Below, in pieces: positions 20,925-63,094 of a stretch of 64,000 bases of DNA. The DNA lies in assembly GCF_026571515.1 (NCBI RefSeq), contig NW_026854096.1, positions 310,001 to 374,000 of the forward strand. The letters run 5' to 3'. The position numbers and the translations under genes were made by a program. Each line of letters starts with the position of its first letter. Positions within the stretch are counted from its first letter, which is position 1. The notes beneath the pieces are model-generated. The model did no database searches, was not told the origin of the DNA, and saw nothing but the letters and a program-made list of their open reading frames with translations. The DNA comes from Ruditapes philippinarum (Eukaryota).

Positions 20925-20988
<64 letters not shown>

Positions 20989-25389: not shown

Positions 25390-26803
25390 ATGTTTGAAAA
25401 TAATACATATTCAGCTAACTGGGTGGGCCTAATCAGGTACCGGGCACACTTTGATTTGATGGCATATAGAGAAGGAGATTATTTTGACGTGTACAAGGTA
25501 TTCAACTTTCAATGAAAGATTTCATATAATGCTAAGAGATTAAAACGTTTTGTGATTTCTTATTCTTTTTTTCTCTTCTTTTTTAAGGGAAATGATAAAA
25601 TGATTGATTGATTTCTGAAAATGTAAGGGTCTGATAAATTAAGTACTTAAATTACTTCAAATATCAAGGTAATATAAATGGATTATGAGAGATGATAAAC
25701 ACTTTATATTGAATGAAACTATCTTATTTCAACTATCTTGTTTAATCTATTATCAGGGGAAGGCATTTAGCTGTAAAGATTATATTCCAAGGTCGGTAGT
25801 TGTGAAGGGTATGCGGCATTACTGTGGTGAACAAGAGGATTTTGAGATGTATAGATTTTGCAGTGAACAGAGCCGAAAAATAGCCATTCAATTCAACAAA
25901 CTTTCCACAGTATTTCCATGCAAGGTTAGTAAATATTTTTAACTTTTTATCTTTTTTTTACAAATATATGATGAAACGTCAGTTATTCTAAATATTATAC
26001 GTTTAAGTATGTGCAAAATATTTCTAACATTTTTATCGTCGTTTTTTTCTCTCAAGTATTTGGAAGACTGTAGGCTCAATTGATGTTAAAGTGTTAAATT
26101 AACAGAAACAACATATAATTATCTATATAATTTAATATATGTACTAGTAATAGATGTTTTTAAACAATGCTGATGTTTTTATACAATGGTGAACAGTAAC
26201 GGAATGACATTACATAAAAATCATAAAACCAAATAGCAAGTAAAGCATACATCTATACAGGTATATCAACATTCAAAGCATTATATTTCATACATCGGCC
26301 ATTGAATACTAAGTTTTGTTGTAAAGAAAATTTAGTGGACTCAATTTTCATTTTAGATACGTTTTGTTGTCCCTGCAGTTACACAAATCGACACAAGATC
26401 TACCGTAGCCTTCGGCAAGAAATTCAACAAAGATGAATATGTTGCCTTTGAAGAAAAGCTTGAAGGAAATTTTACCACTTTCATTGACAAAAGGGGAAAT
26501 ACGTTGGATGGAAATAAATGTTGTTTGATTTTAGAAGCATTTAGTCATTATTCTTTCGTTGTTTCGGAAGGAAATTTTGTAATTTGTGGTCTCCAAGGTG
26601 TATATAGAAAGGACAAATCAGAATTCATCCTAACCAACCCGACAATACATTCGAGAGAAGGTAAATTTGGTCCCGGAGACAAGCGAGATCCGGGAATAAG
26701 AGATGTTACACAGAATCATACTTGTAATAAGTTTTGCCAAATGTTTATGAATAAACCATCAAAGTCTGCGACAGAACTTGAAAATGAATTTGGAGAGATC
26801 TGA
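25390..26803 (+). CDS. Alpha-kinase-fold protein 1 (predicted pseudokinase), 240 aa, 3 coding exons
   Basis: Exons 25390-25497, 25757-25924 and 26357-26803 (phase-0 GT-AG introns). Motifs VVVKG, FEEKLEGNF, AFSHYSF, ICGLQGV, LTNPTIHS, HTCNKFC align with the eEF2K/MHCK/TRPM7 alpha-kinase domain. Confidence 0.9.
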
Positions 26804-28920
26804 ATGAATCAAATTCAGCTGAAGCCTTTACAAGGAGATGATTTGTTTAGACGGGCAGAGATGTTGGTATCAATCAGCGATATAGAGCATGCATCAGGCA
26901 TCGGTGGAGAAAATGTGTACACAGTTGAAAAGACTGGAAATACACGATAATTCACATGGCCTGTCTTTTAAAGAGGGACAAACGATTAGTAACAGTTGCA
27001 TTTTTTGTGTTGGTTTGGCTAACATTAAAGTGAGGAAGGCGTTTGGTGGGTTTGGATTGTTTTTGTCTCTATTTCTGGTGTGGTTGGCTGAAGAGGTGCG
27101 AGTAAAAATAAAATGGCATTATGACATTTTCGTTTAACTCAATCACATAGAAAACCTATATTTTACATATCCACAGCGAGGTCTCCCTCCACCAGTAAAT
27201 GACCTTTTAAGTGTTGATATGACTGTTACTATATCAAAACAATAAAAAGAAACACGCCCGCGGCTATTTTAGAAGGGTAACACACATTGGACCACATTTA
27301 GGAAATGCAACTGCACCTGGCTATTTCAAACAGTTGATACATTAAATACAACTGAGCCTAATTATGATGAAAGCTTGAAGAGTATTGGAACAAGTCTTGA
27401 GTCTGCTTCCTGGGGCTAAACAAGCACTAGCGTTATGTGAGGAAACAGAATCATGTCACTTTCGTGAGAAGGTCTTGTAGACACAGACTTTACACTGACA
27501 ACTGCTACACATACATATACATCAGTTGAAATACAAGCAATAGATTATTAATGATGACTTCTTCCAAAGATTTAATCTTCTTATTACTATATCTTATAGC
27601 AAAGCTTTTGTTTTACATCTATAAATAGAAATACAGTAAATAAAGTTTATGTATTATATTTTGTCAGTCCTGTCTATTTCATCATTTCCTTCTAAAATTT
27701 CGAAATGTCACATTTTTCAAATATTTTTCATTGTTCGTTTCCTTTTTCCTTCCTCATTTTATTTTAAACTCCACACTACTTAACGATTTAATAGCACGCT
27801 TTATTGATTATTCAGGATATGAAAACGAAAGTTACAATAAATAAGGAAACATAAACATTATGACAAATTTGCTTTCTTTAAATCTTTAAACCATACTGAT
27901 TACAATCATCGCTTTTTAAAATTTAACAGGTACTTGGTTTATTATTTTGTGAAATCACTGATTTGTGCAAGATTAAGCGAGGACAGGCATTGAAGGATAT
28001 TCTTTATTGTATACTCGTACAAATTTGTGTAAACCCCTATTACCACTAATCATGGTCGAAACGACGTTTATATAAAATCTGTCATCGGTATTTAAACCAT
28101 TTTGAATGGTTGAATTTTGAATTGAGTTTGCTGAAGAAAATCAGAAGAATTTTATATACAAATTTATGTGACTGAAACTATGGTCCTTTGTTTACCATGT
28201 TAATCAACACATCGACGTCATAAACTAATCTGAAATATTTTACTGTATCTTTCCGTTCATAAAATTGATATTGTCACTGTAAGTGTGTACTGATTATAAA
28301 ACTCTCTAAAGTGACAAAAGTGTATAACGAATAGCGAATGAAGTAATCACCAAGGTCAAATGACTTTAAATTATCTGCAACTTCAGCGCAAACTTAGACT
28401 GAAAAATACAAAATTCAAAGATTTTATCAAAGTTGATTTGAAGCGTCCTTAGATGGTACTTTAATAAGTTAACAAGAATGAATGAATATGCAAGGGCTTA
28501 TAAGTATATTAAAAGACATATTGTAGTAAAAAAGATAGGTGCATCATAGTAAGCATCACAAAGTAGGGATCACCAGGGCAAATAATATGTACACATGTTT
28601 TTTCCAAAGTGACTTTTATTAATTACTGGATTCAGACAGACCTACCTGATCTACCTAATCATAATTAAATTAATTGGTAAAAGAGACAGATAACCAAATA
28701 AACAAAATTATCATTGCTGTTGTGTTTATTGCTTAATTTCAAACTTGCAGTAGTTTTATAATTTCCGTCACCCGTCTTTTTCAATAATTATAAAGAAATT
28801 TTTATTCAAATAAGTTTGTGATATCAATGCTGGCTATAATGTACACATTGTTATATTAACGGACCTCCAACCGGGATTGATACATGTTATTAAACGTTAG
28901 TATCAAGACACTGGTCTAAA

Positions 28921-29258
28921 GGCCCGTCTACACCTATCCAAGTCTTGAATGCAAGCATCATATTCTCTTGTATTCTCTACTTGAATGAGTTTTAAAGAGA
29001 AATTATGTGACATTCAAGAAGATAATTCCTTGCAAGAAAGTTAGAACACGTCCTATTTTTCTACAAGTTTTTGGCTGTCAAGACACTGATAACACCGGTT
29101 TGACACAAAACATGTGCCCCGAAGGTGTGATAGTGTTGTTTTTTTTCATTATTTTCTGACTTTTTTGTTACTGATTCTGTGTTCATGACCTGTAAATTTT
29201 AGTAAATGTATAAAATATCTTGGTCAGAGGAACAGATCAATACATTGATACACAGAAG

Positions 29259-29296
<38 letters not shown>

Positions 29297-29671: not shown

Positions 29672-29677
29672 TAACTA

Positions 29678-31745
29678 CGGTGGCATAGAGGTGACATTTG
29701 CAGTTTTATTTTATCTCGTGGCCACGACTTATTATCTTGAGGCCTCAAGATATTATCTCGTGGCCACGACTTATTATCTTGTGGCCACGACTTATTATCT
29801 CGTGGCCACAAGATATTAACTCGTGGCCACGACTTATTATCTTGTGGCCACGACTTATTATCTCGTGGCCACGAGTTATTATCTTGTGGCCACGACTTAT
29901 TATCTTGTGGCCACGACTTATTATCTCGTGGCCTCAAGATATTATCTCGTGGCCACGACTTATTTTCTCGTGGCCACAACTTATTATATTGTGGCCTCAA
30001 GATATTATGTCGTGGCCGCGACTTATTATCTCGTGGCCACAAGATATTAACTCGTGGCCACGACTTATTATCTTGTGGCCACGACTTATTATCTTGTGGC
30101 CACGACTTATTATCTCGTGGCCACGAGTTATTATCTTGTGGCCACGACTTATGATCTTGTGGCCACGACTTATTATCTCGTGGCCTCAAAATATTATCTC
30201 GTGGCCACGACTTATTTTCTCATGGCCACAACTTATTATATTGTGGCCTCAAGATATTATGTCGTGGCCGCGACTTATTATCTTGTGGCCTCAAGATATT
30301 ATCTCGTGGCCACGAGTTATTATCTTGTGGCAACGACTTATTATTTCGTGGCCACGACTTATAATCTTGTGGCCACGACTTATTACAGCCAATTAAAATG
30401 GACGTTTCATCTTGAATAAAAGTTAATATCACAACGACCGTATATCACACTGGCCAAAGTGTCACAAGAGCGGCGGGTCAAACGCTGCAGCGGTGAATAA
30501 GGGGGACGTTTTATAGTTGTTAGTGTACCCCTTTCTTCTGTTTTGTATGGTCAGGTGTTTCTTTCATTCATCTTTAAAGATATACTTTGCTTAAATTTGA
30601 TATTAGAAAATATTGATAATTGTTACACTGTCTCTTTGTAAACATAAAATAAACATGTTTTGACTTCACATTAGAAAAATCTTGCTCACCATTGAATATT
30701 AAAATCACAGACATTTATTTAAATCTATGATATTCTAACTTAATGCGTCTAACTTGAATAAAGAAAACAATAAACTATGTACAGGAAGCTGCATTCCCTA
30801 TAACAGGTCAAGTAATCTTTACTTAAAAAAACTGACACAACATATATTCATGGTTAACGTTTTATAATTTTGCTACTGCTACTTCTGTGCTACTGTTACT
30901 GCCAACTTCATGTTTTATAATTTTGTTACTGCTACTACTCAATGCTACTGCTTACTTCCTACCGGTGATGACCACTTATAAAAGTGAGTGTATTTTATGA
31001 AAAACTGCATCTACAGAAACTTGATCCTTAAACGTTAGGACCATAAGATAAGAATACAGAGGGCGAATTAGTGATGACAAGAGTCTACTCAGTGGACGTG
31101 TTAATGTGGTCGATACAGTTTATAGTGATATACTAGCTGATTAGCCCTTACTGAAATTCAGCACGTCTCTGGGAAAAAGCGTGAACTTAAGTGAATATAT
31201 GGTGGTGATTGACACGCACCTCCTGTGACTGCTATTGCCAGTGTGATATTAAATTTTGTTCAAGATGAAACGACTATTTTCATTGGCTAAAATAAGTCGT
31301 GGCCACAAGATAATAACTCGTGGCCACGAGAAAATAAGTCGTGGCCACAAGATAATAACTCGTGGCCACGAGATAATAAGTCGTGGCCTCAATATATTAA
31401 GTCGTGGCCACGAGATGATAAGTCGTGGCCACAAGATAATAACTCGTGGCCACGAGATAATATCTTGAGGCCACAAGATAATAAGTCGTGGCCACGAGAT
31501 AATAAGTCGTGGCCACGAGATAATATCTTGAGGCCACAAGATAATAAGTCGTGGCCACGAGATAATAAGTCGTGGCCACAAGATAATAACTCGTGGCCAC
31601 GAGATAATATATTGAGGCCACAAGATAATAAGTCGTGGCCACGAGATAATAAGTCGTGGCAACGAGATAATATCTTGAGGCCTCAAGATAATAAGTCGTG
31701 GCCACGAGATAAAATAAAACTGCAAATGTCACCTCTATGCCACCA
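29678..31745. mobile_element. Foldback-type non-autonomous DNA transposon with 21-bp tandem arrays in both inverted arms
   Basis: Termini CGGTGGCATAGAGGTGACATTTGCAG / CTGCAAATGTCACCTCTATGCCACCA flanked by TA on both sides. Arrays of TTATTATCTCGTGGCCACGAC-type units at ~29710-30385 (~32 units) and inverted at ~31290-31710 (~20 units); inner inverted segments 30387-30433 and 31242-31288. Confidence 0.9.
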
Positions 31746-34091: not shown

Positions 34092-35284
34092 ATGCTTGAA
34101 AATAGCACATATTCTGTTAAATGGCCGAAAGTTATTGGCAACACAAAGAGGTATCGAGCATCGTTCGGGCTAAAGTCGTTCATGGAAGGGGAACATTTGA
34201 TTGTTTTTAAGGTAATTCAGAAAGACAGTAGGTATTCCGTATTGGTAAGATAAACTAATGAGAGGAGTTGAAATGTATTTAAGGGGCTCAAAATATTAAA
34301 ATGGTATCAAAATTTGGAAAAAGGGGTGATAGATACGGCTGATAAAATATTAACCCTACTATCAATGTAAAACTCCAATTTATTAAAATAGCAACATTCT
34401 GCCATGTCTGGCGTGTATGAAATTTGATTTTTTTTATTTTAGGGCAAGGCGTTTAGTCATGAAGATTATATTCCGAGGCCTGTTGTTGTGAAGAGTATGA
34501 GGTACTTCTGTGGAAATAAAGATGACTTTGAGATGTATAAACTTTGCAACGAACAAACCCGAATATTGGCCATTCACTTCAACAAACTATCCGCAACTTT
34601 TTCAAGCAAAGTAAGTTCATTTACGGACTATTTTAACGAATATAAATATACATTTACATACAAATTTATTTAGAGATATAAACATTGTGTATTGTTCTGT
34701 TCAAAATAGCATTAACCGAAAAAGATTTTATGCTTATTTTTACGAAACTAATAAAAAACCAACTATTTGATGTATGTATGCCATTGAATAATAATTATTT
34801 TTGTAGAGCACTTTTCAAATTTTTTCAGAAGATGCAATCTACATTTAAGTTACGGTTTGTTGTTGCTGCTGTTACGCAAATCGACACAAGATCTACCTTA
34901 GCCTTGGGCAAGAAATTTAAGAAAGATGAATATGTCGCCTTTGAGGAAAAGCTTGAAGGAAAGTTTACAACTTTTATTGACAAGCGGGGAGAGACGTTGG
35001 ATAGAAATAAATGTTGTTTGATTTTGGAGGCATTCAGCCATTTTTCTTTTGTCGTTTCTGGAGAAAACTTTGTTATTTGTGGTCTCAAAGGCGTTTATAG
35101 AGAGGACAAATCAGACTTCATCCTAACCAACCCGACAATACATTCGAGAGAAGGTAAATTTGGTCAGAAAGACAAGCGAGACCCGGGAATAAGAGATGTT
35201 ACAAAGAACCATACTTGCAATAAGTTTTGCCAAATGTTTATGAAGAAACCATCAACATTTGACAATGGCACAAGCGAGATATGA
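34092..35284 (+). CDS. Alpha-kinase-fold protein 2 (predicted pseudokinase), ~240 aa, 3 coding exons
   Basis: Exons 34092-34211, 34443-34610 and 34850(or in-frame 34829)-35284; paralogous to 25390-26803; ICGLKGV, LTNPTIHS, HTCNKFC. Confidence 0.9.
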
Positions 35285-38433: not shown

Positions 38434-39255
38434 TTTCATTTCATTTCATTTATTGGCAAATCGGCATAATAATGCCTTTGACCATTTACACATACTAATA
38501 CACATGGTCAAGACATACAGTATACATAAAAGATACACAAATGAATACACATTTAATCTTTACATAATAAATAATCACCAAATATCAAACATTAACACAA
38601 TTTTTAACTCACAAAGGTAATAAGTCCTACGAAGCAGCATTATTTTCAAGGGTTAGACTTCTCAATTTATAAGCTTCTGTTAAAAACTTTGCATTTTTTA
38701 CAATACTAGTTCTACGTTTTGATGACATAATATTAATGAACTTTTGTACTGAAGGCCAAGCATTATTTGTAAAATATTTCTGTCGTAGGTCATAATATTT
38801 ATTACAACATAACAAAAAATGGTACTCAGATTCAACGGATTGTGATTGACAAAGTTTACATATACGATTTTGTCTTTCAATGCCAGTATATCTACCTACT
38901 TCAATTTCGAGATTATGTGCTGATATTCTAAATTTAGTGTATAGCTCTCTTTGTTTACTATTAGTCAAAATATCTAGATATTTTTCATAACAAAAATCGA
39001 CTTTAAATTGTTTATAGTATTCAAGTTTAGCTACATTACGAATCTCCATTTGCCAGTTTTGGATATATTGATCGCGTAGTCTTTGTTTCAAAATACAAAA
39101 ATAGTTACAGGAAGAGTCAAAATTTGACCATATATCACATAAACCTAGACTATCAAGTAAATTTTTAATTTTATTTGACCAAGAATTTGCGTTCTGGGAA
39201 TTACATTGCTCTCTAAAAAGTGTATACATAGGCATGTGTTGATTACTCATTATTT
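38434..39255 (-). mobile_element. 5'-truncated LINE insertion with intact ORF2 C-terminal segment
   Basis: ORF 38627-39268 with KFRISAHNLEIEVGRY..RICKLC..ESEYHFLLCC; tail AATAA(ATGAA)n; 12-bp TSD TTAATATAATCA at 38422-38433 and 39256-39267. Confidence 0.93.
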
Positions 39256-39797
39256 TTAATATAATCAATTGACAGTATTTTTTTCTGAGAAAGAAGTGTT
39301 ATAAATCAATGGCAGTAAGGTTTGCGCCAAGGATTGCTTCGAATGCTCATATTGCAACTTTAGTATAACATAGACTATTAAATTTGAAAGATTTTCTCAA
39401 GCATTGTCTTAGAAATTTCCTTTATATACAATGCAGTTGTGTCCATTAATATGAAATAAAGGAAGTTTAATCGCTATCTATAACTTAAAATGTACTTTAT
39501 GATTTTATTTATATATCCACAGTAAAGCTTTTGCTTAATGCCTATACCCATTTACATGTGTACGCCAATATTTAAACTTTTCTCAACGCGCTCTCATATA
39601 TTTGGGACACCATTTTCTATTTATAAAGACAACAATCTTCATCGCAGTATTGTTTTCGTTTCCGGCAAATTAAATATTGTGAGTATATATAAGTATATAA
39701 GGAAGTATGTTTTCATCTCTTTATGTACAACATACACTTAGCGATTTGTTTTTCCTTGTGTTTTTTATGATTAAATTTTGCAAAATTCATTGTGAAA

Positions 39798-40844
39798 ATG
39801 CTGGAAAATAGTACATATTCAGTTTATTGGCCGAAATTAAACGGCATGAAAAGGGACAAAATAACAAGGTATCGTGCATCGTTTGGACCGAAATCTTTTA
39901 TGGAAGGGGAACATTTGATTGTTTTTAAGGTAATTTTCTATACGACATTAAAGCGTTAGTTCTGAGTGCAATATTTGTAGCATCTGAGACTTAAACAAAA
40001 GTTATTGTCTGTGGCGTGTTCGCATGTTGTTTAGCTTTAATGTATAATACATATACATTTTTTTCATCATCATATTTCAATGCTGTTGACAAATAACGAC
40101 AAAGTACTAGATATTCAATTTGCAATGAAAAAAGTATATAGAAGCTTAAACAATTGTGAGTTGCAAAAGGACTAAATTTACTAGGGTTTCTGACATGATT
40201 TGACTGGAGTTAATTTTTCAAGATGTAATGTTCGATTTGATGTAAGTTTGGACCTATAACTTGTATGCAAAATTTCAGATCGTTTGTTCAATCCGTTTAT
40301 CCAGAATAATTATTCTAATTGTGAAAAAAAAACGAACCAAAATTTATAAGCGGTGCGGCGCTTTTCATTAGAATAGCACAAAAATAGGATTTTCAATTAA
40401 TTTCTGGACATATTTCTTAATTATCTTGTGCTTATCTCGAGTGCCCAAGTTGATCTATGTAAAAGCTTCAAATTTTATGTTTTATGATTTTTAACCTCAT
40501 TTGAGTTCCTTTTAAAAGGCATCAAAAAGCAAGGTTTTATATGGCTTATAAAACATAAACCATACTATCAATTTTAGATAATTTTAATTGCAAAATATGT
40601 AATGTCTGTCGTTAATGAAATCTAAATTTGAGATTAACAGGTTACAGAGTTTTATGGTTGACATCAAAAGTCATCTTATGTACAGTACATGTATTTATTT
40701 TTTTACTATGTTTTTATATATTTCGGCTCAGGATTTTAAATTGTCTGCTAATTATCTTTTTACAATTTTAGTAATGTGTTTTAAATCCTAGCTGTAAACA
40801 AGAGTGTCATTAACTGAAGATTTGACTGTGATATACATTTTTAT

Positions 40845-40919
<75 letters not shown>

Positions 40920-41309
40920 TTCGGCATAGGAAGCATATACATAGTTGACAACATAACATAGGATAAAATAATGAGCATTATTAAATACTATATCACATAC
41001 GAGAAAACTATGACATGCTCACCAACACCAATGATAACACAAAAAAGGGCAAACAAGCTCTTATTTCCATTGTGGTCCTTTGTATTAGTACTTTTAAACA
41101 TGATTATATTTAGGTCTGCCTCTCTATATCATGCCGCCAATACAAAGGACCACAATGAAAATAAGAGCTTTTTTGCCCTTTTTTGTGTTATCCTTGGGGT
41201 TGGTGAGCATGTCATAGTTTTCTCGTATGTGATATAGTATTTAATAATGCTCATTATTTTATCCTATGATATGTTGTCAACTATGTATATGCTTCCTATG
41301 CGGAAATAA

Positions 41310-41371
<62 letters not shown>

Positions 41372-42253
41372 AAATTGTCTATCATATTTCAGGGCAAGGC
41401 GTTTAGTCATGAAGATTATATTCCGAGGCCTGTTGTTGTAAAGGGTATGAGGTACTTCTGTGGAAATAAAGATGACTTTGAAATGTATAAACTTTGCAAC
41501 GAACAAAGCCGGAAAATAGCCATTCAATTCAATAAGCTGTCCACAACCTTTTCTAGCAAGGTAAATCTATATTTTACGAATTATTTCAACAAATTTCTAA
41601 TAAGTGATTGTTGTTAAAGATTAAATATTTAAGATTGATATTGTTTATTTCAAAACGTTATGCACAATTCATGCCATAGAAGCATTTCTTTAAAATGGCA
41701 ATATACATATCCATTCAAAGTTAAAAGGATTTACAATATTTTATGTACGAGAAATGCTAACATTAGACATTTAATAAAAATTATAATTGGAAATCACATA
41801 GTTTAATCTTTTAAAAATGCATGTACATTTCAGCTACGTTTTGTTGTCCCTGCTGTTACACAAATTGACACTAGATCTGGCGTAACCTTCGGCAAGAAGT
41901 TTAAGAAAGATGAATCTGTGGCCTTTGAGGAAAAACTTGAAGGAAATTTTACCACTTTTATTGACAAGAGGGGAAATACCTATTGTTTGATTTTGGAGGC
42001 ATTCAGCCACTTTTCTTTTGTCATTTCGGAAGGAAATTTTGTAATTTGTGGTCTGAAAGGTGTTTATAGAAAGGACAAATCAGAATTCATCCTAACCAAC
42101 CCGACAATACATTCGAGAGAAGGTAAATTTGGTCCGAAAGACAAGCGAGATCCGGGAATAAGAGATGTTACGGATAACCATACTTGCAATAAGTTTTGCC
42201 AAATGTTTTTAAATAAACCATCAAAAATTACCAATGGACCAGACGAGATTTGA
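39798..42253 (+). CDS. Alpha-kinase-fold protein 3 (predicted pseudokinase), 239 aa, 3 coding exons
   Basis: Exons 39798-39929, 41393-41560 and 41834-42253; GT-AG introns at the same positions as the paralogs; ICGLKGV, LTNPTIHS, HTCNKFC. Confidence 0.9.
40845..41370. mobile_element. Hairpin MITE-like element bounded by (GATA)n and (TATC)n
   Basis: ~170-bp inverted arms (~40918-41087 and ~41139-41306) around a ~50-bp loop; (GATA)n on the left and (TATC)n on the right. Confidence 0.85.
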
Positions 42254-44283
42254 ATGAATCAATTACAGCTTAAATCTTCATAGTAAGAGGTTTTATCTTA
42301 ATATGGAATGTTATTTTCCACCAGTACCCACAGGAGGGTAATCATCATACATCAGTGAAGAAGTTATGCACACTGTTGAAAAGCCTGAAAACTTCATTTT
42401 GTACATAAAATGTAGTCAAGTGCTAAAAACATCATACTGATTAATATGCACACATGGGCAGTCTTTGAAAAGAGACAAATCGCATTTAACTAATCACCTA
42501 TGTATAATCATCTTGTTGGTTTGGCTAGCGTTAAAGTTTAGACGGTGTTTAAGAGGGAGATGTCTGAGTAGACAGTGGTATTAAGTTAGATGAAGCTAGT
42601 TTGGGAGGTGAGACATAGTCGTGGCTATGAGAAAAGAGAAACGAAACAATTTCTTCATGATATTTTATTTTCTTTTTTCCAAAGGACATTGGCGGATTAT
42701 TTCAGTTGAAAAAGGTGCAGTTGTTTCAGGAGAAACACATTGTTTTCACAAATTATATACATGTACTTATCTTATCAAATAGCACACAGTATTGTTAAGC
42801 TTTATAGAGTTTGGAAAGAAATATAATGAATGAAAACTATACATTTCTCCTTAATTACTCATACCTTTTTATACCTTTATAATATAGTAATTGACCCGTT
42901 CGTTCTTCCGTGTACGAGGTCCCTAAACTTGCAAGTTGGATATATCTGAAGTTCTACCTCAATCTGACTAAAGATTGAACCTTCTTATGTTTACAGTCCG
43001 ATTGGTTCTGCTTATTACCAATGGCTTCATAATTTATTATGTAGACAAAGTACACGATATTTCTAAGTTATTTTACTGTGTCATTCAATTTTCCCAATTA
43101 TATCCTTTCTATTACTTTGAAAATAAGAGCCTGGTTTGGTTAACATATTCGTCATAAATTTGATTAATTTTTGAATATTTTTAACTTCATCAAATATTAA
43201 TGACGTGCAAACATTGTTATAAAAAACTGTCAAAATCAGTCAGTAATCGTACAAAACATGTAAATTTTTACTTAAATCTTTAATCGTTTTACATTTCGTA
43301 ATATCTACTCTAAGAACATTTTTCTCAAGTTGTTTTCCCCTTGAAATACTTTGGCTCATCTTGAGTCATTCAGCTTTTGTTATTGGCCCCCTTGACGAAC
43401 TTTATAAAGATATTCTATAATGAAATTTAAAGAAAATGACACTTCAAGTGTTACAATTAATGATCATACCGGGCTTTCAAAAGCAATATTCTGAATGTAT
43501 AAATAGCGCCTGTCTAGCCGTTTGAAATAAAGATAGAAAATAAGAAGTAGTTATTAATGACTAAGTTCATATAACTGTTTATATTTCACTTTTATGAACC
43601 GGATATTATCAACAATTATTGTAAAAGCAGCGGATATATTGAAATATAATAATTAGAAGTACACACAAATGTAATTATTTTTTAAATATACATCTTGACT
43701 TTATATACTTCTTTGATTACACAGTGCGCCCTAATTCATTCACTTGACAAATCACCCACGACAGAAATTGCTTGACAACCAAACTATTTGTTATCCCATG
43801 TTTTCAAAGTTTTATATTTAGTACAAGTTGACAAATGTTATTTAAAGTATCGAATCATTGGTTTTAGGTTATGTTTAGCAACCTAAAAATGTCATTTAAT
43901 TTTACGGCTTTAACTGCAATATTTGGTATTTCTGACAATAAATCAAAAAAGTAAAAATCATACTAGAGATATGCCGACTGAACGATCGCGAATCACTAAC
44001 CTAAATATACAATGATATCTTGTAACATTTTTTCCTATTCCAAATATGGCAATTTTCCTGTTATCACAGATGTTTATTTTAAAAAATTACGCACAAAAAG
44101 TCGGCAGTATTTTTAAAATGAGATTTTGTGCGAGGTCATGGCAATATAATATTATACCGTTCTAAAAATACATTTTTCCTATTATATTAAAAACATGGTA
44201 ATGTTCCTGTAACCCCGGAAGTTGTTTTTTTAAATTGTTTTTTGTTGTTATAAATGACGTACGAAAGTCAATGAGAATTCTAG

Positions 44284-44381
44284 TGTGTGTGCGTGTGCGT
44301 TGGTGTGTTGGTGTGTGTGTGTGTGTGTGCGTGTGTGCGTGCGTGCTTGCGTGCGTGCGTGCGTGCGTGCGTATGTGTGTG
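44284..44381. repeat. (GT)n/(GCGT)n microsatellite
   Basis: Direct inspection. Confidence 0.9.
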
Positions 44382-44499
44382 TATTCCCGTTTATCTATAC
44401 TGGCCATCGGTTGCCCATATGGCCGAGTCCTCCAGAAGATTAGTTGTAATTTCAGATTCTTGGAGGATAGTGCAATGATCCACTTCCAGAAGCTTCTCC

Positions 44500-44662
44500 T
44501 GGTTCTTTAGCGTGCCAAGTGTTTAAGCACACATACACAGGACCTCGTTTTAAAGTCTCATCCGAAAGACTGATTAGTAATTTTAGTTGGGCAGCCCGGG
44601 AATCGAATCCACAATGTCGAGATTTCAAGTCTCGAGCTCTAACCGATTGTGCTATGCAGGCT
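44500..44662 (-). mobile_element. tRNA-derived SINE
   Basis: Minus strand GCCTGCATAGCACAATCGGTTAGAGC (A-box) ... GGATTCGATTCCC (B-box) followed by non-tRNA body. Confidence 0.65.
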
Positions 44663-47600
44663 GGCAGAATTCTAGAGAGGACATGACAACGATTTATATA
44701 CAAAAAATGCACAACATGTGTTCTCTTGCTCAAATATGCATTGACTTAAGACATTTAATAATAATAATAATAATACACATATGGTTTTATGTTTATTTGC
44801 CCTGACGATTATAGAAACCGGTAAGAAATAAATTAAATTGAGAAAATCCAGTTAATTTCAGTTATTTTTTTATATATTTTTTTTCTTGTTCCGGCACTTT
44901 TTATCATTTTACACATTTATATATAAAAAGAAAAGAAAAAGGAAAAGATGGTTCAGATAATTGAGTATCTTATAAGAAACTATAAAAGCATACCAAAAAA
45001 AAAAAAAAAAAAATGAAAAAGATTTTTAGAAATAAAATAAAAGTTTTTGTATACGGACAATCTAATCGTTCGATATTTACGATGACGAAGGACTGGCTGG
45101 GATTCTGTTCATTACTGGTGCGAACATTTTGCGCATACGTAATTTGCCTCATTTTAAGCACTTGTTTTCCATTAAACTATTTTCAACAAATGTTCTACGT
45201 TTTCTTTCTGTTTAAAATCATGTGAATTGTACTTCATACTTTAAACGAGCCGTCAAGACTTTTTATCACCCAGATAAAATGCTTTGTCATTTATTTACAA
45301 AAGAAAACCAATCATGATATCTTATAAACACATAATTTCCTGTACGTATTGTTAAATTAAAACGAAACTTAAAACCACACAAATACCCACCGAGATGTTA
45401 ATAAAATAATTTAACAAACAGTCGATGGAGAATGTTCTAAATTAATGAGCACTTGTTCAAATTCTCTTTATTCATGAACAAATAAAGTTGAGAGAAATAT
45501 TTAATTAATTCACTTTAATTCACGAAGGCTGATTGAAAAGAAATAAACTTTACATAGCTGGGAGACTTATTGTTTTATTGTCCTAATCAAACACTTACAC
45601 TGCACCGTTACACTCATTCAGGCAATATTGCAGAGATACTTAGTTCTCGTTGTTTTACGTTCAACCATGATGTTATTCAAAGCCGGGACAAAGTATGTCC
45701 CGACATGAAGTGGAAAGAAATATTTTACGAATGGGAAACACCTAATAAAGCTCTTCAGTACATGATTCAAAACTAAATGATCCGTCTTTGTAAAATGATA
45801 GTTTTGCTGCCCTACTTCGCAATAAATGCAGATAACTGTATACGTGAAAATAAGTTCGTATATGACAAAATATCGTTAAAGTATAGATTATGTGTATTTT
45901 CGACTGATTTAAAGTGTGATGTTTAACCGGGGAAAATTAAAAAAAGTAATGTTTCTGAATGTCACATAATTTCATTGGAATAGTATATTAAGAGTTTCGA
46001 TTGGTTATTATAAATAATTTATTTGATAGTAAAAGGTTATTACGGTCTCTCCGCCTTTTAAATACTTTACAGCATTCTGCTATAGGAGGATAGGGAGTTT
46101 ATGACCTACGTAATTGTCAACAAGTCTAAACGAAACAATTTGATTTTGAAGTTGAAAGTATATCCCTGTGTAACAACGGCCCAGTGAAAGCCATGCTGAA
46201 ACCGAGGTAAATGACATTTGGCCACCGGTATAGAGCCGACTTTACTATATTAATAGCCATTTTTTGTATATTGGTACTAAAATTCCTATAACTTTAAATG
46301 GTCTGTAAAAACAAAGCTTGACAAAGTCATTACCTAATTGTAACAAGTGAAAGGTGTTCAGCTACAAAGGACAAATAACAGGTCCAAGTAGCTCTTATGA
46401 GCCATGTTTGTCCAGCGCCGCCATTCAAACCATCAATCGCTTTTAGAAAATTAGCATTCTTTCATACTCTACAGAGAATCGTTTTGGATAGGGTCATTTC
46501 TTTCCCTCTCTCGTTTTAAATGTTGAAATAACCTTTAGAAGTTTAGATTGTTTTGGTTAAATATCTACTTCTGAGAACCAAATTTGTTTTGTTTAAATAT
46601 ATTGATAAAACTTACTCGTGTGACAAAACAACATAAGAAAGTTGACAATTTCTTCTAAAAAAATAAAGATTTGAATAATAAAAAATTTAGAACACAATTG
46701 TTTTGATGTATAATAACTTTATTTAGATATGGAGTGAAAAAATATCATATTTTTATTTTTTCCCAATAACTATTATTTCTAAACACTTTCGACACTCGAC
46801 ATTAATAGCATATGACTAAATGCTCGATTAGAACATACACGAATAGAACGTGCATTTAATTAAATTCTGCATCTCGAATTTAACGGGCTTCATGATTTTT
46901 TATTTGAATTAAGCCTTTGCGCTGCGTACATTATGTGATTATTTAAAAGTGAAAATGATTCTAGAAATGGTTGAATCTAACAGGAGCATTGAAATAGAAA
47001 AAATGGGGGTGGGGGTATGGGATTACAGATTCTGTGTTTTTAAGTTTGAACATCGGAGATAATGGGTGATGCAACATTTGTAACGCCCCCCACCCCCACC
47101 CCCCAGCACCGACGTAAACAGTACAGGACATTATTTTACGGCTGCATTACACCAGTCCTACTATTGTGAGAAAAAAATATCATCAAATGTAAAAAGGTTC
47201 GCAAGTGCACAAATTGCAGTTAATTTTACTGTAACATTATGACATTTCGATATTTTTTCAAAAAGCGATTGAAAAAAAGAAACGCTACATTTTCAGATCA
47301 TTCTTTTTATTAATCATTATTGGTTTATCAGCAATAAATATCGAAAGTGAACAGATATGTTTTATTTGTGATATTTATGTAGTTTTAAGCTGTCGAAAAC
47401 AACAAAAATTAATGCAAAATATATATTAAGTAAGAAATCATGCACGTGCAATGTAATGCATATGACTGACGCTGATATTATATCTATCCTCGGTAATTAT
47501 AAACCGCGACAAGGAATACATATTGAGGGAAAGCACAACTGGTAAAATTATATGAAACTTAATCTTTTCCCTTTAGATATCGTTATTTGTGCATTATCTA

Positions 47601-49693
47601 ATGGTTTATTTTTGTAGTTCGAAATGGTATACATTTTTTTCCCGTATTAAAAAGATAAAAGCCCTATCATGTTAAGAATTACAATGAATATGTCAAATAT
47701 GCAAATATGCATAGCTTATCAAATAACAAAATTACCTCTTATCATTTTAATTACTTTCCTTATCCTTTTTTATTTCTATAAATATAATTTTACCTGCATA
47801 ACGAGAAAACTTCTTTCAAAAAGACATGACTTGTTGATTTAAATAGATTTTTTGTAAAACGCAGTGAAATAATTAGTTGTCATTTGTAATTTATTTTCAT
47901 AAAATCAAGAGGTTTAGAGTAATATATAAATTGACAACTGCATAAAAATAATTTTCCAGTTTTCAGAGTGATGTATATCTACTAAAACATTATATTTTCA
48001 GGTCAAGCATTTTAGTTTTTGAAACATCAAATAATAATTATTATAAAAAAATGGCATAGTGTAAAGCAAGCATATATATCCGGGCTCCTAGGCGTTGGTT
48101 ATATGGCTAAAATGCCGTTAATATATGGCCATATAACTTGTCAAAGGTTTTTTTAACCAATTTAAAGAAATAATGCAAAAATGCTGTCTGTCATTAAGAT
48201 GGAAATTTAATCATTATTTTGCATTAGTGTACATGTATATAGAAAATAAAAACGTCACTACTAAGTATTATCCAACGAAAATCGATGTTTCAAACGTGCA
48301 GTATTATAAATCATTATTTTTTCTTTTGTCGGTTGCTTATGTTTGCCTTCAGAAACAATTATTTTGATAAAAAAGATTGAAAATTTATTGCTGGGTTGTC
48401 ATATTTCATGACCGGAATGACCTGGGGTAAAATGAGACCGGATTACTTTATTCTTGAAAGAATTAAATGGTTTAATAAAAAAAGATAAGCGTTTATTTAT
48501 CTACTTCTTTCTAAAACATTAATAAAGATTTTGACTCCACAAGAAAATGTTCAAGTAATTTATCCAATTTTTAAGTACTTTGTATCTTATTTATTTCAAG
48601 GTTTATCCCTTTTTCTGTATGAAGATTGTCCAGTAATTCAATATTCAATACAACCGCAAAAAACTATTACATTATTCTATTTTAAGAACCATGAGCTGTA
48701 TGTATTTACAGATATAATATACGTATATTTCGCAAATCACTTGTGATACACTCTGGTTGCTCCTGTCCCATTTTGATAACAACTGAACAAACAAGAGGGG
48801 GGAAAAGAAGAAAGATAACACATACCATGTTATGATTTTTTTCTCTGTTAATCGCCTTTGGTACAAACAAAACTTTTATACTGTTTTTTTTCAGAATAGT
48901 TTTCCTTGAATTAACAATGGATAGGTTCAGTGTCAACGGAGGACACGTTCATTACATAAATATATTGATTTTTATGGGTTTTATTTACTTATTTATTTTT
49001 ATTTTTTGGTCGCACCAATTATGTCATGAAGTGTAATAGGTGGTCCACTCAGAGGGGAAAATATAATTTTGAAGTGAATTGAACGAACATAACTGAGATT
49101 TGATATTGTTTTTTTTATTTCTGTAAAACATACATGTACAAATCAAGAAATGAGCATATAGAAATAACAATACAGATAAAAATTAAATTATTTTTAAATT
49201 AAAGCATGTAGTTGCATGTACATATATTTGTATAGGCGGGGGATGAACGATAATGTATATATCGAACACAATATGTTGTAAATTAAATAATTGTTAAATA
49301 CATTAGGAAAAAATAGGATTTCTATTCAATGTCAAAAGGTTACATTGAATAAAAAGAAGATATTGTTTGTATACAGAAAGAACAACAACTGTACACTCAT
49401 GCTAGTTAATGTGGAGAACCGATCTCTTACTTTTGTTCAGTTATAGGGGATTGTTTTTGCTAAATATTCGAAAGCAAGGTCCCTTTCTATCGCCCCCTAC
49501 CTACCATCCAACCACTGCACCCAGACTAAAATGGATGCGACTACACTCATTGCCAAGAATGCATAGATTTACACAATATATGTACATTTGCATTTCATAT
49601 ATTCTTACTACGAGATCACGTAAGTCAATTTTAAATCTTGAGATCAAGCTCAAAACTGAGAAACATAACATTGACCGGAGATTGCAGAAGATG

Positions 49694-51875
49694 TCACGTG
49701 TTACCATCGCACGTGGTGTAAGAAGGCGGGCCAAATCTGTCCGACAATGAATATTCTGGCGGACGAACAGGTTCTCTGTCACAGTTGTGACGTTCAATGA
49801 GCGCGTGTTTCTCGTTGGTAAATACATCTTCATTGTTTACCTCACTTTGTTTAGAATTTTCATCGTTTAATTTCTTACTCCCATGAATGTTGACTGGTTT
49901 TGCAAAGCTTTGGCAAAATGCATTGCAGGTGTGGTTCACGAAAAAGGTATTAATCCCTTCGTCACGTTTGTCCTTATCGCCATAGCGACCGTCACGTGAG
50001 TGAATTGTGGGATTGCTCAGTTTGTACTCATCACCTTTTGCAATACCTTTAAGGTTACAAACCACTAAATTTCCTTCGGATTCGTGGTATGTGAAATGAC
50101 AAAAGGCGTCTAAAACATCAGGGCCATTACCGGTTGTATGTCCACTTGAATTGACAAATGTTTTGAAATCACCGTTTAGAAATTCTTCAAATAGCACAAC
50201 TTCGTCTTCCCCGAATGTTTTATCAAAACGCATGAGAATTCGCATGAATAGCATAACATATGACGTAGTGTCCATGACCACATCTATTGGTTTCATTACG
50301 TTAATCTGTAAATAAAGAGTTTTACGTTCAATTTCCACCTGACAGAAATTATAACGCCGTATATTTTTAATTTCAATTTAATATTTTATAAACAAATCAT
50401 ATTTAAATTATATTTGATCGGACGCAATTGTTAATAAGTTTGGTATTATAATCTAAGTTTGGTTTTCATTGGATAATAACAATAACAATAATAATAATAA
50501 GTAGGGATGGCAACGAGTAACCGGTTAACCGAGTACTCGATCGAACGTCCGAATATCGGTTAACAAAATTGATATTCGATTACTCGGAAAAAATGTATAA
50601 TTTCTATTTTATTTGCTATTTAGACAGTTTGGTGTATCCAATTAGTTCAGAAATTCAGAGATGTGCATATACCTTCATAAATACCTGTTAAATGCAATCA
50701 CAACTTCCTTGCATAGGTGCGAAAATGATACTATAAATTTAATGAGGCGATCAACAGTTTGACACGCGCACATGTGTCGCTTACGTCATCCGGCCTCTTA
50801 TGATATTTAGTAACCTTTAATTTTGTAACACAGCGCAGTTTGTACCCGAATCTTGTTTAAACGTAACATTTTTGAAAACAACAAAGGGCCGTATTGCTAT
50901 TATGATATAATAATTAAAGTAGTATTTAGATCATTGGAAATCGTCCGAGTAACCGAGTACTCGATCGGAAAAATGACCGAGTACTCGAGTATTGATTTTG
51001 GTATTCGTTGCCATCCTTAATAATAAGAATAATAATAATAAGAAGAAGAAGAAGTAACAACCAAAAACAAAACCCACAACCGCCAACAGAACAGCAAAAA
51101 CTTAACAGTTTTTAGGAGACGTTGTAATACATATTAAAAATCTAGTAGACCTACTTTATTGCCTTACCTTTTGTGTAAAAAATGTTCCATATTTGAATAT
51201 TTTTAATTAAATGGCCGGTTTATACGGAACCTCTTTCGTTGAGTTCTGCTGTATATTTAATTTTGTTTTGTTGAACCCATGATGCATAAATATGTCTAAC
51301 CTTTGTATCGCATGTCTTCTTTGCTAATATTTTGTTGAATGTTGCCGCCATTCTCCTTGTGACGTCACAGCGTTCTTTGTATGGTATCCAATCACTTGCT
51401 GTGCCTTCCCGATGCCGAAACGCCTTAAGAACAACCATAGTACCGTTGGTATAGTAAATCCTGTGATAAGCCATTCCCTGGGGAAAAAAACAATCGTGAA
51501 AATAGAATTAAGACTTTAAATCATTCTGTTAATACATTTAAAGTTTTAAAGAAACACATTTTTCTGAAACTCCTTTTCTATATATCATATGAATGTTTAT
51601 TGTCATAACAACATCTGTCTAATCAATATGATAATGAAAACAAAAACAAACGTAAAAAGAACACACCCACGCACATTCACACGCTTACACCTACATACAC
51701 GCAAGCACGAACGAACGCACGTACGTATTCGTGCACTCACAATCCTTAAACAGCCTACCTTAAAACCATAACATGTTTTCCCTGTCCATTCAGGGTAAAG
51801 TTCAAATGTTACCCAGTGAGTCAAGTTATGCTTCCAAGGTCTTGAAGATAGTGTCGTATTGGTCGTTCCCATCAT
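49694..51875 (-). CDS. Alpha-kinase-fold protein 4 (predicted pseudokinase with PPxY tail), ~301 aa, 3 coding exons
   Basis: Exons 51875-51759, 51477-51301 and 50305-49694, phase-0 GT-AG introns. VVLKAF, FEEFLNGDF, AFCHFTY, VCNLKGI, LSNPTIHS, HTCNAFC; tail PPEY..PPSY. Confidence 0.9.
50502..51019. mobile_element. hAT-type MITE in intron 2 of alpha-kinase gene 4
   Basis: TIRs TAGGGATGGCAACGA...TCGTTGCCATCCTTA; 8-bp TSD ATAATAAG (50494-50501, 51020-51027); subterminal CCGAGTACTCGA repeats. Confidence 0.92.
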
Positions 51876-52067
51876 GTACTTTATTATCTGTGGTAGTTTA
51901 TGTATGTTGATGTCTGGAGTAAAAAAAAATCTTAAATAAAATCAAACACATATCATAGCACTGATTAGTGATACCGGAAGTTTGTTAAAAGTTATGTCAT
52001 AAAATTGTATCTTGATATAGTATATCCCAATGTAATAATGGCGGAAAGAAATAGATTTTGCTTTGGC

Positions 52068-57250: not shown

Positions 57251-57488
57251 TGAGCCGTGTCACGACAAAACCAACATAGTGGGTTTTGCGACCAGCATGA
57301 ATCCAGACCAGCCTGCGCATCCGCGCAGTCTGATCAGGATCCATGGTGTTCGCTATCAGTTTCTCTACTTGTTATAGGGTTTGTAAGCGAACAGCATGGA
57401 TCCTGATCAGACTGCGCGGATGCGCAGGCTGGTCTGGATCCATACTGGTCGCAAACGCACTATGTTGGTTTTGTCGTGACGCGGCTCA
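57251..57488. mobile_element. Palindromic MITE, fuller-length copy
   Basis: ~100-bp inverted arms TGAGCCGTGTCACGACAAAACCAACATAGTG...; same family as 24525-24736. Confidence 0.9.
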
Positions 57489-60400: not shown

Positions 60401-61189
60401 ATTTAAAAGGGATGACGCCATATTTGTAGTAACATTGTTTTACAATCGTTTTAAAAACATTATTCTCCACTTTCAAAATAGTAAAAAGATACTTATGTGA
60501 TTGAAAGATAGTAAACAAATATTCTAAATATTAATAAATGAGATAGGTATTTACTCTTTCTTCAAAATTCTCAGATTACAAAAATTACACTGATTAAAAA
60601 AGATATATTGTTTCAGAGACTTACGGCTCTCTTACAAAACGTATTCATATATATATATCAAAAACATGCTAACACTACATTCCAGGTATACCCTATTTTA
60701 GTCTTTAATTTATAAATAAAGTGAACACTAAACAATACAATAGATTAACGAAGGATATATATCTAACAAAGAAAAAAAAAACTAAAGGATTTCAATAAAA
60801 TAACGCTTGTTTTGTAATAAGGTTTTGATTTTATCACATGTAGATATAACATGATTGCTTGTAAAACTATCAGAGTAAAAATTTAATTATTTAACAATTG
60901 TAACAAAATCCAATACGTTACTAAAAAACAATTAATACTATATTTAGGAACCATGTCCATTTCGATTTTGTTGAAGTTCTAGGCACGCGCGGCGTTCCAC
61001 GTCAGACACGTGTATTTTCATTAATAATATACTAATACATTGTGTTCTGCTGGAATAGTCTAATCATGAAATTGCTTTGATCCTCTAAAATACTATTTTG
61101 TGATCGCTTAGATGCGTCAAAATTGCATTATAATACATGTAACATATATGTAAATTCGCGTACTGCTATTTTGGCGCTCAATGCTTTAG

Positions 61190-63094
61190 TCATGAAGAAC
61201 TATCCTTCATGCACGTGTCGTAAGATGGCGGACCAAATGGGTCTGATGATGTATACGCTGGTAGACGAGTTGGTCCCGGTTCATGATTATTTTGTTCCAT
61301 TGATAAGTTTGCATTTTCCGCCTCTTTTCCTTTTGTGAGAGTGTTTTCGCCAAAGCAGACGGATCGTGAACTTGGATTTTCAAAACATTCCTCAACGTGT
61401 ATATGCTCTGGTTTAACAAAAGTTGCACACATGGCATTACAAGAATGGTTTCTGAAAAAATCGATGATTCCAACATCGCGTTTGTCCTTATCACCATAGC
61501 GACCGTCACGTGAGTGAATTGTGGGATTGCTCAGCTTGTACTCGCCATCTTCCTCAATTCCTTTAAGGTTACACACTACTAATTTTTCTTCGGATGCATG
61601 ATATGTGTAATGGCAAAAAGCGTCTAACGCCTCAGAACCATTTCCGGTTGCCAGTCCATTGGTGCAGACGAATGTTTTAAAATCTCCGTCCAAGAATTGT
61701 TCAAATAAAACAACTTCGTCTTTCTCGAATTTCTTATCGAATCGCATGAAAATTCCCGTGATTCTCATCACATCTGATATGCTGTCCATAATGGCGTCTA
61801 TTGGTTTTAGTACAATTAGCTGAAATATATATCATACAATCTTGTTGTCATAGAAATGGTTTTAATATCATGTAAAGTGACGTCAGATGTGCACATTCTC
61901 ATCGCTTACTCTACATGGTTGAACATTTTGCTATATTTTCATATAAATGTAAAATTTAATAACGAAACAAATTTTCGTTTCATTTCACTCCAGATGTGGG
62001 CCAATGTCTGGTTTGTGCATGTGTGTTGTTTGTTTTTTTGTCTGTTCTTTTTTGTTGATTTGTTTAGTGATTTTTTTAAAAATTTTAAAAGTATATCTTA
62101 AAACCATTAACCATGACATTGAATTTGAAAAGCTATGTGAAGAATGTATCGGGTCAAAGTAACAAAGCTTTATCGACCTGATACGTTTAGAGCAATTAAA
62201 AAAGAAACTTGAAACCATGTCATTTAAATTTCCGTTTTTATCACAAATATCACAAACAATTCCTAGAACGAAATTAAAATCAAGTTTTATTTAAATTCCT
62301 GTAAACAGGGGAAAATGCATGATGGGTAACTAATAAATATGCACAAACACAAAAAATATAGATATTTAGTAGCCTGGATCTTTTTTTTATATATTTTAGT
62401 AGCCTGAATCTTTTTTATATATTTGAGTAGCCTGAATAATCGTTTTTATATATTTGAGTAGCCTGAATCTTTTTATTAAGTTGATAATACAGGTACCATT
62501 TTATAAATATCTCATCCAAATAGACACATATGCAAGTTTCGATACTATTAAACAATTAAACTTATCTCTCTCTTAAAATCAATACAAGACCCTTGTGAAC
62601 ATGAAAACTGGATTGCACTAAAGCATACTTTATGTTACATGTATCAAGTTTAAAATGTTTTCACATGTAAAACTCAAAAATGTTTGCGCACATATTTAAT
62701 GCGATAATCATGTGTTTTTGTTATTTTTTGTTTCATAAATTTTCATTTTTGCTCATTTATTTTTTGTTTTTTGTGTGTGTGCGTGTGTCTGTGTGTGTAC
62801 TTTCGGGTCTTCGTTCTTTTTGGGTTGTGTTTTATGAAAATAATATTGAATTTTCACTGAAAACGGTCCCTTTCACATTTTTTTCACCAAAATTACACAA
62901 AAAGAACACCTGCTTACCTTTGTATTGCAGGAAATAGTTGCTAAATGTTTGTTGAATTCAGCCGCCATTTTTCTTGCTACGTCACAGCATTCTTTGTACG
63001 GCGTCCAATCAATCGCGCTGCCTACTCGGTGTCTGAATGTCTTGACAACCACCATCGTGCCGGAGAAATAGTCCTTCTGATGATATGCCATCCC
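61190..63094 (-). CDS. Alpha-kinase-fold protein 5 (predicted pseudokinase with LPxY/PPxY tail); exons 2-3 only, exon 1 probably beyond the window
   Basis: Exons 63094-62918 and 61819-61190; paralog of gene 4; VVVKTF, AFCHYTY, VCNLKGI, LSNPTIHS, HSCNAMC; tail LPAY..PPSY. Confidence 0.88.
62360..62475. repeat. Short minisatellite (~4 copies of a ~28-33 bp unit)
   Basis: Repeated ATATTT(G/T)AGTAGCCTG(A/G)ATC unit in intron 2 of gene 5. Confidence 0.8.

Follow-up and report, generated by a model that had tools for sequence, protein, structure and literature searches.

We describe here a cluster of five genes, A to E, that encode alpha-kinase-fold proteins in a 64,000-nucleotide stretch of the Ruditapes philippinarum genome (contig NW_026854096.1, positions 310,001 to 374,000; hereafter the window, with positions counted from its first letter). 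The five proteins are under selection, are not decaying, and lack the catalytic aspartate pair of their fold family. Among the closest described systems are the active alpha-kinases (MHCK A, eEF2K, TRPM7, ALPK1 and an Entamoeba enzyme), with which the clam genes share the fold, the strand-3 lysine, the hinge glutamate, the N/D-loop aspartate and a His-His-Cys-Cys zinc site. The clam genes differ in having lost the equivalents of MHCK A residues D756, D766, K722, R592 and D663, in having no accessory folded domain, and in belonging to a family whose tails carry PY motifs (PPxY or LPxY) and, in relatives of the five, P(S/T)AP. In a study of MHCK A, D766 is catalytically essential and forms a phosphorylated intermediate, D663 mutants have about 1% of kinase activity, and R592 is important but non-essential, with a threefold effect on Km and a sixfold reduction in kcat (PMC4876393). 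A first-pass annotation of the window had listed R592 among the required residues, and on this point it needs correction.

Loss of activity in an alpha-kinase domain has a precedent in ALPK3, which has been called the first alpha-pseudokinase and has variant positions reading G, K, Q and N; its domain is reported to be inactive and to have a scaffolding role close to the protein-turnover machinery (PMC9698156), and ALPK3 signalling is reported in the title of another paper (PMC11358020). The Asp pair is not among the variant positions of ALPK3, whereas the clam genes have lost both aspartates and kept the N/D-loop residue, and ALPK3 is a single large muscle protein, whereas the clam family is clustered, 240–310 residues long and associated with late-domain motifs. 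Dictyostelium vwkA also shares the alpha-kinase domain, but according to a family review it is intrinsically active and bears a vWA domain at its N terminus (PMC2827801). Full-length A, D and E contain PF02816 only, with no vWA, arrestin or LITAF domain, and the kinase fold of D begins at residue 4, so that the database name ‘alpha-protein kinase vwkA-like’ misleads. The same review has no word starting ‘mollus’, an oyster kinome paper places some atypical kinases in the alpha type with function unknown and has nothing further (PMC4883820), and two other papers make one passing mention each (PMC9283884, PMC7217437). The literature searched, outside which lay subscription journals and supplements such as the tables of kinome or genome papers, contained no account of a family of alpha-pseudokinases in molluscs or other invertebrates, and the only alpha-pseudokinase encountered in it was ALPK3. 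The novelty suggested in the first-pass annotation therefore stands for the family but not for the concept, and the family is real, selected and apparently undescribed.

The Tribbles proteins (TRIB1-3) have a short C-terminal ligase-binding motif; they combine a CAMK-type conventional kinase fold with COP1, whereas the clam genes combine an alpha-kinase fold with WW- and TSG101-type motifs. Tribbles has been described as a dead kinase through which substrates are brought to a ubiquitin ligase (10.1101/313767), and the likeness that we draw is an analogy of logic, not kinship. The pairing of PPxY with P(S/T)AP is found in ARRDC1 and SCAMP3 and in viral late domains (PMC9882979, PMC8402826), and in LITAF and CDIP1 the combination of PSAP and PPxY is reported to recruit TSG101 and ITCH/NEDD4 ligases (PMC5095921). 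In LITAF/CDIP1, ARRDC1, the alpha-arrestins, SCAMP3 and viral late domains both motifs lie in a disordered segment and recruit NEDD4-family ligases and TSG101. Relatives of the clam genes that carry both motifs share this layout, although their folded module is a kinase fold in place of a LITAF, arrestin or membrane domain, and although D and E lack P(S/T)AP and A–C lack both motifs. As judged from sequence and model, A–E fall within the alpha-kinase fold family and outside the active alpha-kinases, vwkA, ALPK3 and Tribbles.

Gene models, catalytic residues and selection

The motifs of the first-pass annotation were recovered five times by a six-frame scan of the window, and the five intact genes lie where it had placed them, three on the plus strand and two on the minus strand. 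Each gene has three exons and encodes a protein of 239–312 residues; both introns are phase 0 with GT-AG ends and sit at equivalent codons in all five genes, and the spliced models have no stops or frameshifts.

25390..26803, plus strand: gene A (exons 25390-25497, 25757-25924, 26357-26803), 240 aa, tail-less, ending 21 aa past the zinc motif
34092..35284, plus strand: gene B (exons 34092-34211, 34443-34610, 34850-35284), 240 aa, predicted tail-less alpha-pseudokinase
39798..42253, plus strand: gene C (exons 39798-39929, 41393-41560, 41834-42253), 239 aa, predicted tail-less alpha-pseudokinase
49694..51875, minus strand: gene D (exons 51875-51759, 51477-51301, 50305-49694), 301 aa, disordered tail with two PY motifs
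61190..63094, minus strand: gene E (exons 2 and 3, 63094-62918 and 61819-61190), 312 aa, two PY motifs

Exon 1 of E lies just past the window end (L001:1901-2032, corresponding to window 64901-65032). Apart from this exon, the upstream 20 kb and the downstream ~29 kb that flank the window hold no further family gene, and searching the genome with a scallop member added no locus (13 matches of 17 candidates). An intact copy of D, 96% identical in protein, is present on the 16 kb contig C11024 (L006) and is probably an uncollapsed allele. Database proteins labelled Ruditapes philippinarum match the spliced models of A (P0216), D (P0001) and E (P0003) exactly; they do not constitute independent support.

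The register of the catalytic core was set by alignment to MHCK A chains that include the D766A and D663A mutants, with numbering taken from the mutant positions and from Phe720 and Lys722 as named in PMC4876393, and with the D766 column fixed by the D766A chain 3lmi. The degenerate cores of A and D read as follows.

26477..26737, plus strand: degenerate core of gene A, with TFID at 26477, CGLQG at 26585, LTNP at 26630, DKRD at 26678 and the zinc motif HTCNKFC at 26717
49913..50161, minus strand: degenerate core of gene D, with TFVN (K722 site) at 50161, CNLKG (D756/Q758) at 50059, LSNP (D766) at 50020, DKRD at 49972 and the zinc motif HTCNAFC at 49933

In this register the replacement of D756, D766 and K722 that had been proposed from motifs is borne out in all five genes: the D756 equivalent is G in A–C and N in D and E, the D766 equivalent is N throughout, and the K722 equivalent is T throughout. 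The R592 equivalent is F, L or C, and the absence of a P-loop arginine reported for the four visible first exons extends to exon 1 of E. A further loss that had escaped the first-pass annotation is that of the alpha-C acidic residue (MHCK A D663), which is Tyr in all five, and the Q758 equivalent is Gln only in A and Lys in B–E. Retained in all five are the strand-3 lysine (MHCK A K645) within VVK or VLK, the N/D-loop aspartate, and the predicted His-His-Cys-Cys zinc ligands, the lysine and the zinc ligands as first described. The MHCK A D756A and D766A domains are termed “inactive” in their PDB titles and both structures were solved with ATP, so that nucleotide may still be bound when these residues are lost. 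A–E thus combine the fold, zinc site and lysine of the family with the absence of the residues that characterise its active members, and from the motifs we infer that they would have no measurable phosphotransfer.

Each of the residues lost in A–E is retained in an intact-motif paralog on contig C3781 of the same genome (L003:4350-5150). This is a stand-alone alpha-kinase with all catalytic motifs intact, and its close relative P0078 begins with MGxxxS. Contigs C4770 and C8833 (L008-L011) carry tandem stand-alone alpha-kinase copies with intact motifs and an intron within xDLQG, some of them partial or with stops.

The fold assignment agrees with both checks that the first-pass annotation had suggested for it. 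Exon 3 of all five genes scores 80.8–101.4 bits against the Pfam Alpha_kinase profile (PF02816), for which the cut-off is 21.3. The AlphaFold2 model of D has a mean predicted local distance difference test score (pLDDT) of 87.6, with the tail beyond about residue 240 mostly poorly predicted, and that of A has a pLDDT of 92.7. The top matches of the D model are alpha-kinases only (Foldseek E 1.7e-16), and the ESM Atlas names only alpha-kinase clusters. Comparison by VIA gives Z 21.1 to the Entamoeba alpha-kinase (root-mean-square deviation 2.8, 209 aligned) and Z 19.7 to MHCK A, with deviations of 2.8–3.0 Å from the two across residues ~4–240; the next other fold has Z 8.0.

Ratios of nonsynonymous to synonymous substitution (dN/dS; Nei-Gojobori over the domain) for the five unsaturated pairs are 0.216 (A/B), 0.189 (A/C), 0.186 (B/C), 0.169 (D/E) and 0.281 (D and its C11024 copy), with Fisher p values of 2e-3 to 2e-21, far from the value near 1 that would speak for neutrality. 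Pairs between the two subfamilies (39–43% identical) are saturated, and for the D/E tail the ratio is about 0.25 with dS near saturation. As to expression, which had also been proposed as a check, exon 3 of D was found in 20 of 24 listed runs, only two of these being recorded as RNA. Four RNA runs were aligned to 41380-52060 of the window, and spliced RNA was seen for C and D: four reads from two runs span intron 2 of C, and intron 2 of D is joined in one RNA contig at depth 19.9. The first introns of C and D were not seen joined in these four runs.

Decaying duplicates or an annotation artefact might account for the missing residues and for the low RNA depth on C and D, and other alpha-kinase copies in this genome (C4770 and C8833) do contain stops. 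This explanation is nevertheless largely refuted by the absence of any lesion in the five genes or in the probable D allele, by the dN/dS values of 0.17–0.28, and by the presence of orthologs of both subfamilies in Mercenaria and of the same loss across molluscs, and we regard it as barely credible.

Relatives of the five genes

A search of 1.84 billion representatives with exon 3 of A returned 1722 matches, of which the best 150 were used, and the family counts given here rest on these. Together with 14 matches for D, our own models and two paralogs from the same genome they make up an alignment of 165 proteins, and removal of three multi-domain proteins left 162 single-domain relatives: 80 lack both aspartates, 16 lack one and 66 have both. 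The doubly degenerate proteins keep the zinc ligands, the strand-3 lysine (48/52) and, wherever the column is filled, the N/D-loop Asp (79/79). The D756 site is G in 39 of the 80 and N in 38; the D766 site is N in 31, T in 25 and S in five, with others; and the Q758 site is K in 35, Q in 26 and E in 13.

The DKRD tetrad, described in the first-pass annotation as an invariant replacement of the canonical loop, is indeed present in all five genes, but its first D is the canonical D/N residue and the tetrad as a whole occurs in only nine of the 80 doubly degenerate relatives. We have therefore rejected DKRD both as a substitute catalytic acid and as a family hallmark.

The tree was built from 98 rows with enough columns and with the catalytic columns excluded. 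It groups 67 of the 68 degenerate rows with two intact rows (Shimodaira–Hasegawa-like approximate likelihood ratio test, SH-aLRT, 88), and A–E lie inside one 35-row group of degenerate proteins (SH-aLRT 97). A single clade for the 67 degenerate rows is neither rejected nor shown by the approximately unbiased test (p-AU 0.106), and the free tree requires three changes. The shared replacements in the two subfamilies had been taken as a sign of selection for a non-catalytic role; the dN/dS values support selection, but because A–E fall in one 35-row group the replacements represent one inheritance and not two independent signals.

An organism name is attached to 13 of the 30 clusters consulted, in every case that of a mollusc, the named members being Mercenaria, Dreissena, Sinanodonta, Potamilus, scallops, Haliotis, Patella and Octopus, with Mactra among the matches for D. 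Mercenaria holds orthologs of both the A–C type and the D/E type. Neighbouring locus tags suggest that members are clustered elsewhere too, in Patella (SNE40_017457, 017460 and 017463), in Mercenaria (LOC123549398, 399 and 400, with the E ortholog seemingly on the same sequence), in Mizuhopecten (OWF37990 and OWF37995) and in Potamilus (006961 and 006963). A profile search of a large protein database gave eight matches only. These sequence comparisons place A–E in an old group of putative alpha-pseudokinases that extends at least across molluscs. All 19 long relatives scanned contain PF02816 only, with no fused partner or immune domain, longer and shorter forms not being searched.

Several relatives depart from the common layout. 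Four of them are P0111, P0091, P0017 and P0129: a 3296-aa protein from Octopus and one further protein, of 1530 aa, begin with a degenerate alpha-kinase domain, and two of the four have three alpha-kinase domains in which intact and degenerate motifs are mixed. In P0055, P0119, P0134 and P0143 both aspartates are lost and PPxY is absent, but the K-F-N-S-N motif remains; these proteins are possibly an independent origin of alpha-pseudokinases. P0050, P0114, P0159 and P0156 have a C-lobe insertion of more than 100 residues, and in three of them PPxY occurs in the insertion or in the sequence that follows.

The residues that persist in the doubly degenerate proteins also bear on whether these are enzymes with changed chemistry or weak residual activity, such as an ATPase or nucleotide transfer, acting through the retained Lys and N/D-loop Asp and through new Lys, Asn or Tyr residues. 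Pseudokinases with other chemistry are exemplified by SelO and SidJ. Unusual nucleotide chemistry is moreover described for MHCK A (PMC4876393). A new active site should be invariant, however, and the replacements at D756, D766 and Q758 vary among the 80; no invariant polar residue specific to the dead members stood out, and we think such an enzyme highly improbable.

C-terminal tails and a putative adaptor role

The most informative feature of the family is its PPxY/P(S/T)AP tails, which, like the mollusc-wide group, were absent from the first-pass annotation. In the window they are represented by the tandem PY motifs of D and E.

49718..49762, minus strand: tandem PY of gene D, PPEY at 49762-49751 and PPSY at 49729-49718, 11 residues start to start (PPEY-x7-PPSY)
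61220..61264, minus strand: tandem PY of gene E, LPAY at 61264-61253 and PPSY at 61231-61220, 11 residues start to start (LPAY-x7-PPSY)

Motifs were counted in the 150 residues past the zinc motif, in tails of at least 30 aa (77 degenerate, 54 intact). PPxY is present in 47 of the 77 degenerate tails and in one of the 54 intact tails, and P(S/T)AP in 36 and one, the lone intact protein with P(S/T)AP (P0130) nesting within the degenerate group on the tree. Shuffling the tails 300 times gave 3.2 for PPxY (maximum 8) and 0.7 for P(S/T)AP (maximum 4), and look-alike controls are at background (PPxF 3/64, P[^ST]AP 5/77, PA[ST]P 0/77). PSAP precedes PPxY in 23 tails, with the reverse order in one, and the distance from one PY motif to the next is 11 residues for 15 of 26 pairs. 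The pattern persists when only 50%-cluster representatives are counted (PPxY 36/66 and P(S/T)AP 33/66 degenerate, against one and one of 53 intact) or when linkage clusters are used (20/37 and 18/37, against 0/24 intact). Named taxa bearing the motifs include clams, freshwater mussels, scallops, abalone and limpets, with PSAP present in the tails of Mactra P0013 and Haliotis P0044, for example. The enrichment over shuffles and controls, the order and the spacing together show selection on the motifs across the group.

The fullest late-domain layout seen in this genome is that of a paralog on contig C4292 (L005:4180-4900; G000:C4292 ~39170-39900, minus strand), a single open frame of 444 aa from the first Met that is degenerate (SNLQG, FTGP), starts MGxxxS and carries PSAP and three PPPY. 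We considered an N-terminal Met-Gly as a membrane anchor specific to the pseudokinases and rejected it, since an MG start occurs in 18 of 56 degenerate and nine of 27 intact proteins; MGxxxS/T starts (eight degenerate, seven intact proteins) are a weak lead only.

The known partners of PSAP and PPxY in LITAF, the presence of genes with WW plus HECT domains in this genome (contigs C11258, NEDD4-like; C11685, Itch/WWP-like; C4135; and C6471) and the logic of Tribbles lead us to favour, by a modest preference over all else, a role for the family as Tribbles-like cargo adaptors for NEDD4-family ligases and the ESCRT sorting machinery, built on an alpha-kinase fold. The domain, which by sequence and model has kept its fold and zinc site and lost its phosphotransfer residues, would serve as a binding module, with a cargo protein seated where the substrate once lay in the cleft, perhaps tuned by metal-free nucleotide at the retained Lys. 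The disordered tail would recruit the WW domains of NEDD4-family HECT ligases through PPxY or LPxY. In its ancestral form it would also use P(S/T)AP to recruit the ESCRT-I component TSG101, and cargo would thereby be ubiquitinated and sorted at membranes. D and E would be members with only the tandem PY motifs, while A–C would most likely be competitors or buffers that bind cargo but recruit no ligase, which is the weakest step of the proposal. A complex prediction of the D tail (residues 262–301) with one WW domain of the C11258 NEDD4-like protein, run without controls, gave 0.06 relative to a mark of 0.34 and is evidence neither way.

PPxY is a general class I WW ligand, and the family could instead be a scaffold that sequesters or positions WW proteins other than ligases (Yorkie/YAP, WWOX and others). 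Tandem WW domains of the YAP type accept two PY motifs with flexible linkers, whereas the tight mode of KIBRA and MAGI needs a linker of two residues (PMC6744271). Many WW genes without HECT are present in this genome. The seven-residue linker of D and E excludes the KIBRA/MAGI mode, however, and none of the 77 degenerate tails has the two-residue spacing; P(S/T)AP in 36 of the 77 also suggests ESCRT-I, a partner of NEDD4 ligases, and not Hippo. We consider a scaffold of this kind distinctly unlikely.

The tail-less genes raise a further alternative, in which the domain is a non-catalytic competitor, decoy or sensor that binds the substrates or regulators of active alpha-kinases, a ligand or a pathogen product, with the tail setting only the protein's own turnover or its loading into vesicles. 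Consistent with this, A–C are under selection (dN/dS 0.19–0.22) and have expanded in this clam and in Mercenaria without a tail motif, intact-motif paralogs are present in the same genome (C3781, C4770 and C8833), and lineage-specific tandem duplication is frequent among defence genes. The order of PSAP before PPxY and the fixed spacing in bivalves and gastropods nevertheless exceed what a simple degron needs, there is no sign of positive selection, and the 19 long relatives scanned have no immune domain. We judge this unlikely, although it is the alternative to which we would give most weight.

Several observations weigh against the adaptor proposal itself. Three of the five genes (A, B and C) lack any tail motif; A–C and their Mercenaria orthologs stop 17–21 residues past the zinc motif and, being nested among tailed relatives, have most likely lost the tail. 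D and E have the tandem PY but no P(S/T)AP, which leaves relatives as the basis of the ESCRT link, and 18 of the 77 degenerate tails have neither motif. The association between motifs and degeneracy has a Fisher p of 1.4e-14, but the tail and the loss of catalytic residues were passed on jointly, from about one event, and this value is therefore not evidence of co-evolution; only two phylogenetically independent pairs are available for catalytic loss and PY (sign test p 1), which gives no power. Most of the intact proteins used for comparison are of unknown origin, and raw RNA depth on the C and D exons is only about 0–4. PPxY also binds WW proteins of the YAP/Yorkie type, and it could be a mere signal for self-turnover.

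A more ambitious version of the adaptor proposal is tentative. A mollusc alpha-kinase may have become a class of cargo adaptors paralleling the alpha-arrestins, in which a membrane-directed dead kinase (often with a Met-Gly start, and possibly myristoylated) would hold cargo or a nucleotide-like ligand in the old active site. A PSAP...PPxY...PPxY tail resembling viral late domains would couple it to NEDD4 ligases and ESCRT, leading to down-regulation or to release in vesicles, and paralogs of the A–C type would be antagonists.

Surroundings and significance of the cluster

Repeats and a neighbouring gene were also noted in the window.

538-7536: long terminal repeat (LTR) retroelement remnant, with 1369-base direct repeats (538-1906 and 6169-7536, 99.4% identical), one gag-like and one aspartyl protease frame, 733 bases duplicated exactly within the element, and at 4190-5218 a 342-aa frame without family; no reverse transcriptase frame was seen in it
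~9200-11850, minus strand: multi-exon flavin-containing monooxygenase gene (PF00743), the upstream neighbour of the cluster
13739-14039, 40842-41386 and 57251-57488: palindromic elements resembling miniature inverted-repeat transposable elements, that at 40842-41386 lying within intron 1 of gene C and having GATA/ATCT microsatellite arms
14569-15711 and 19552-20768 (82% identical), 16735-19228 and 20809-23289 (86%): local duplications
29711-30385 (32 copies) and 31291-31712 (20 copies): two opposite arrays of a 21-base minisatellite between A and B, which produce long spurious open frames
38627-39298: 223-aa frame that by eye resembles a long interspersed nuclear element tail fragment

The cluster belongs to a multi-gene group of putative alpha-pseudokinases that spans three mollusc classes and has been masked by automatic names such as ‘vwkA-like’. 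If its members are adaptors, the principle of Tribbles would have been invented independently on a second type of kinase fold, and the PSAP/PPxY set known from alpha-arrestins and budding viruses would occur on a protein with a kinase fold. Many of the proteins in mollusc kinome counts would then probably not be phosphorylating enzymes.

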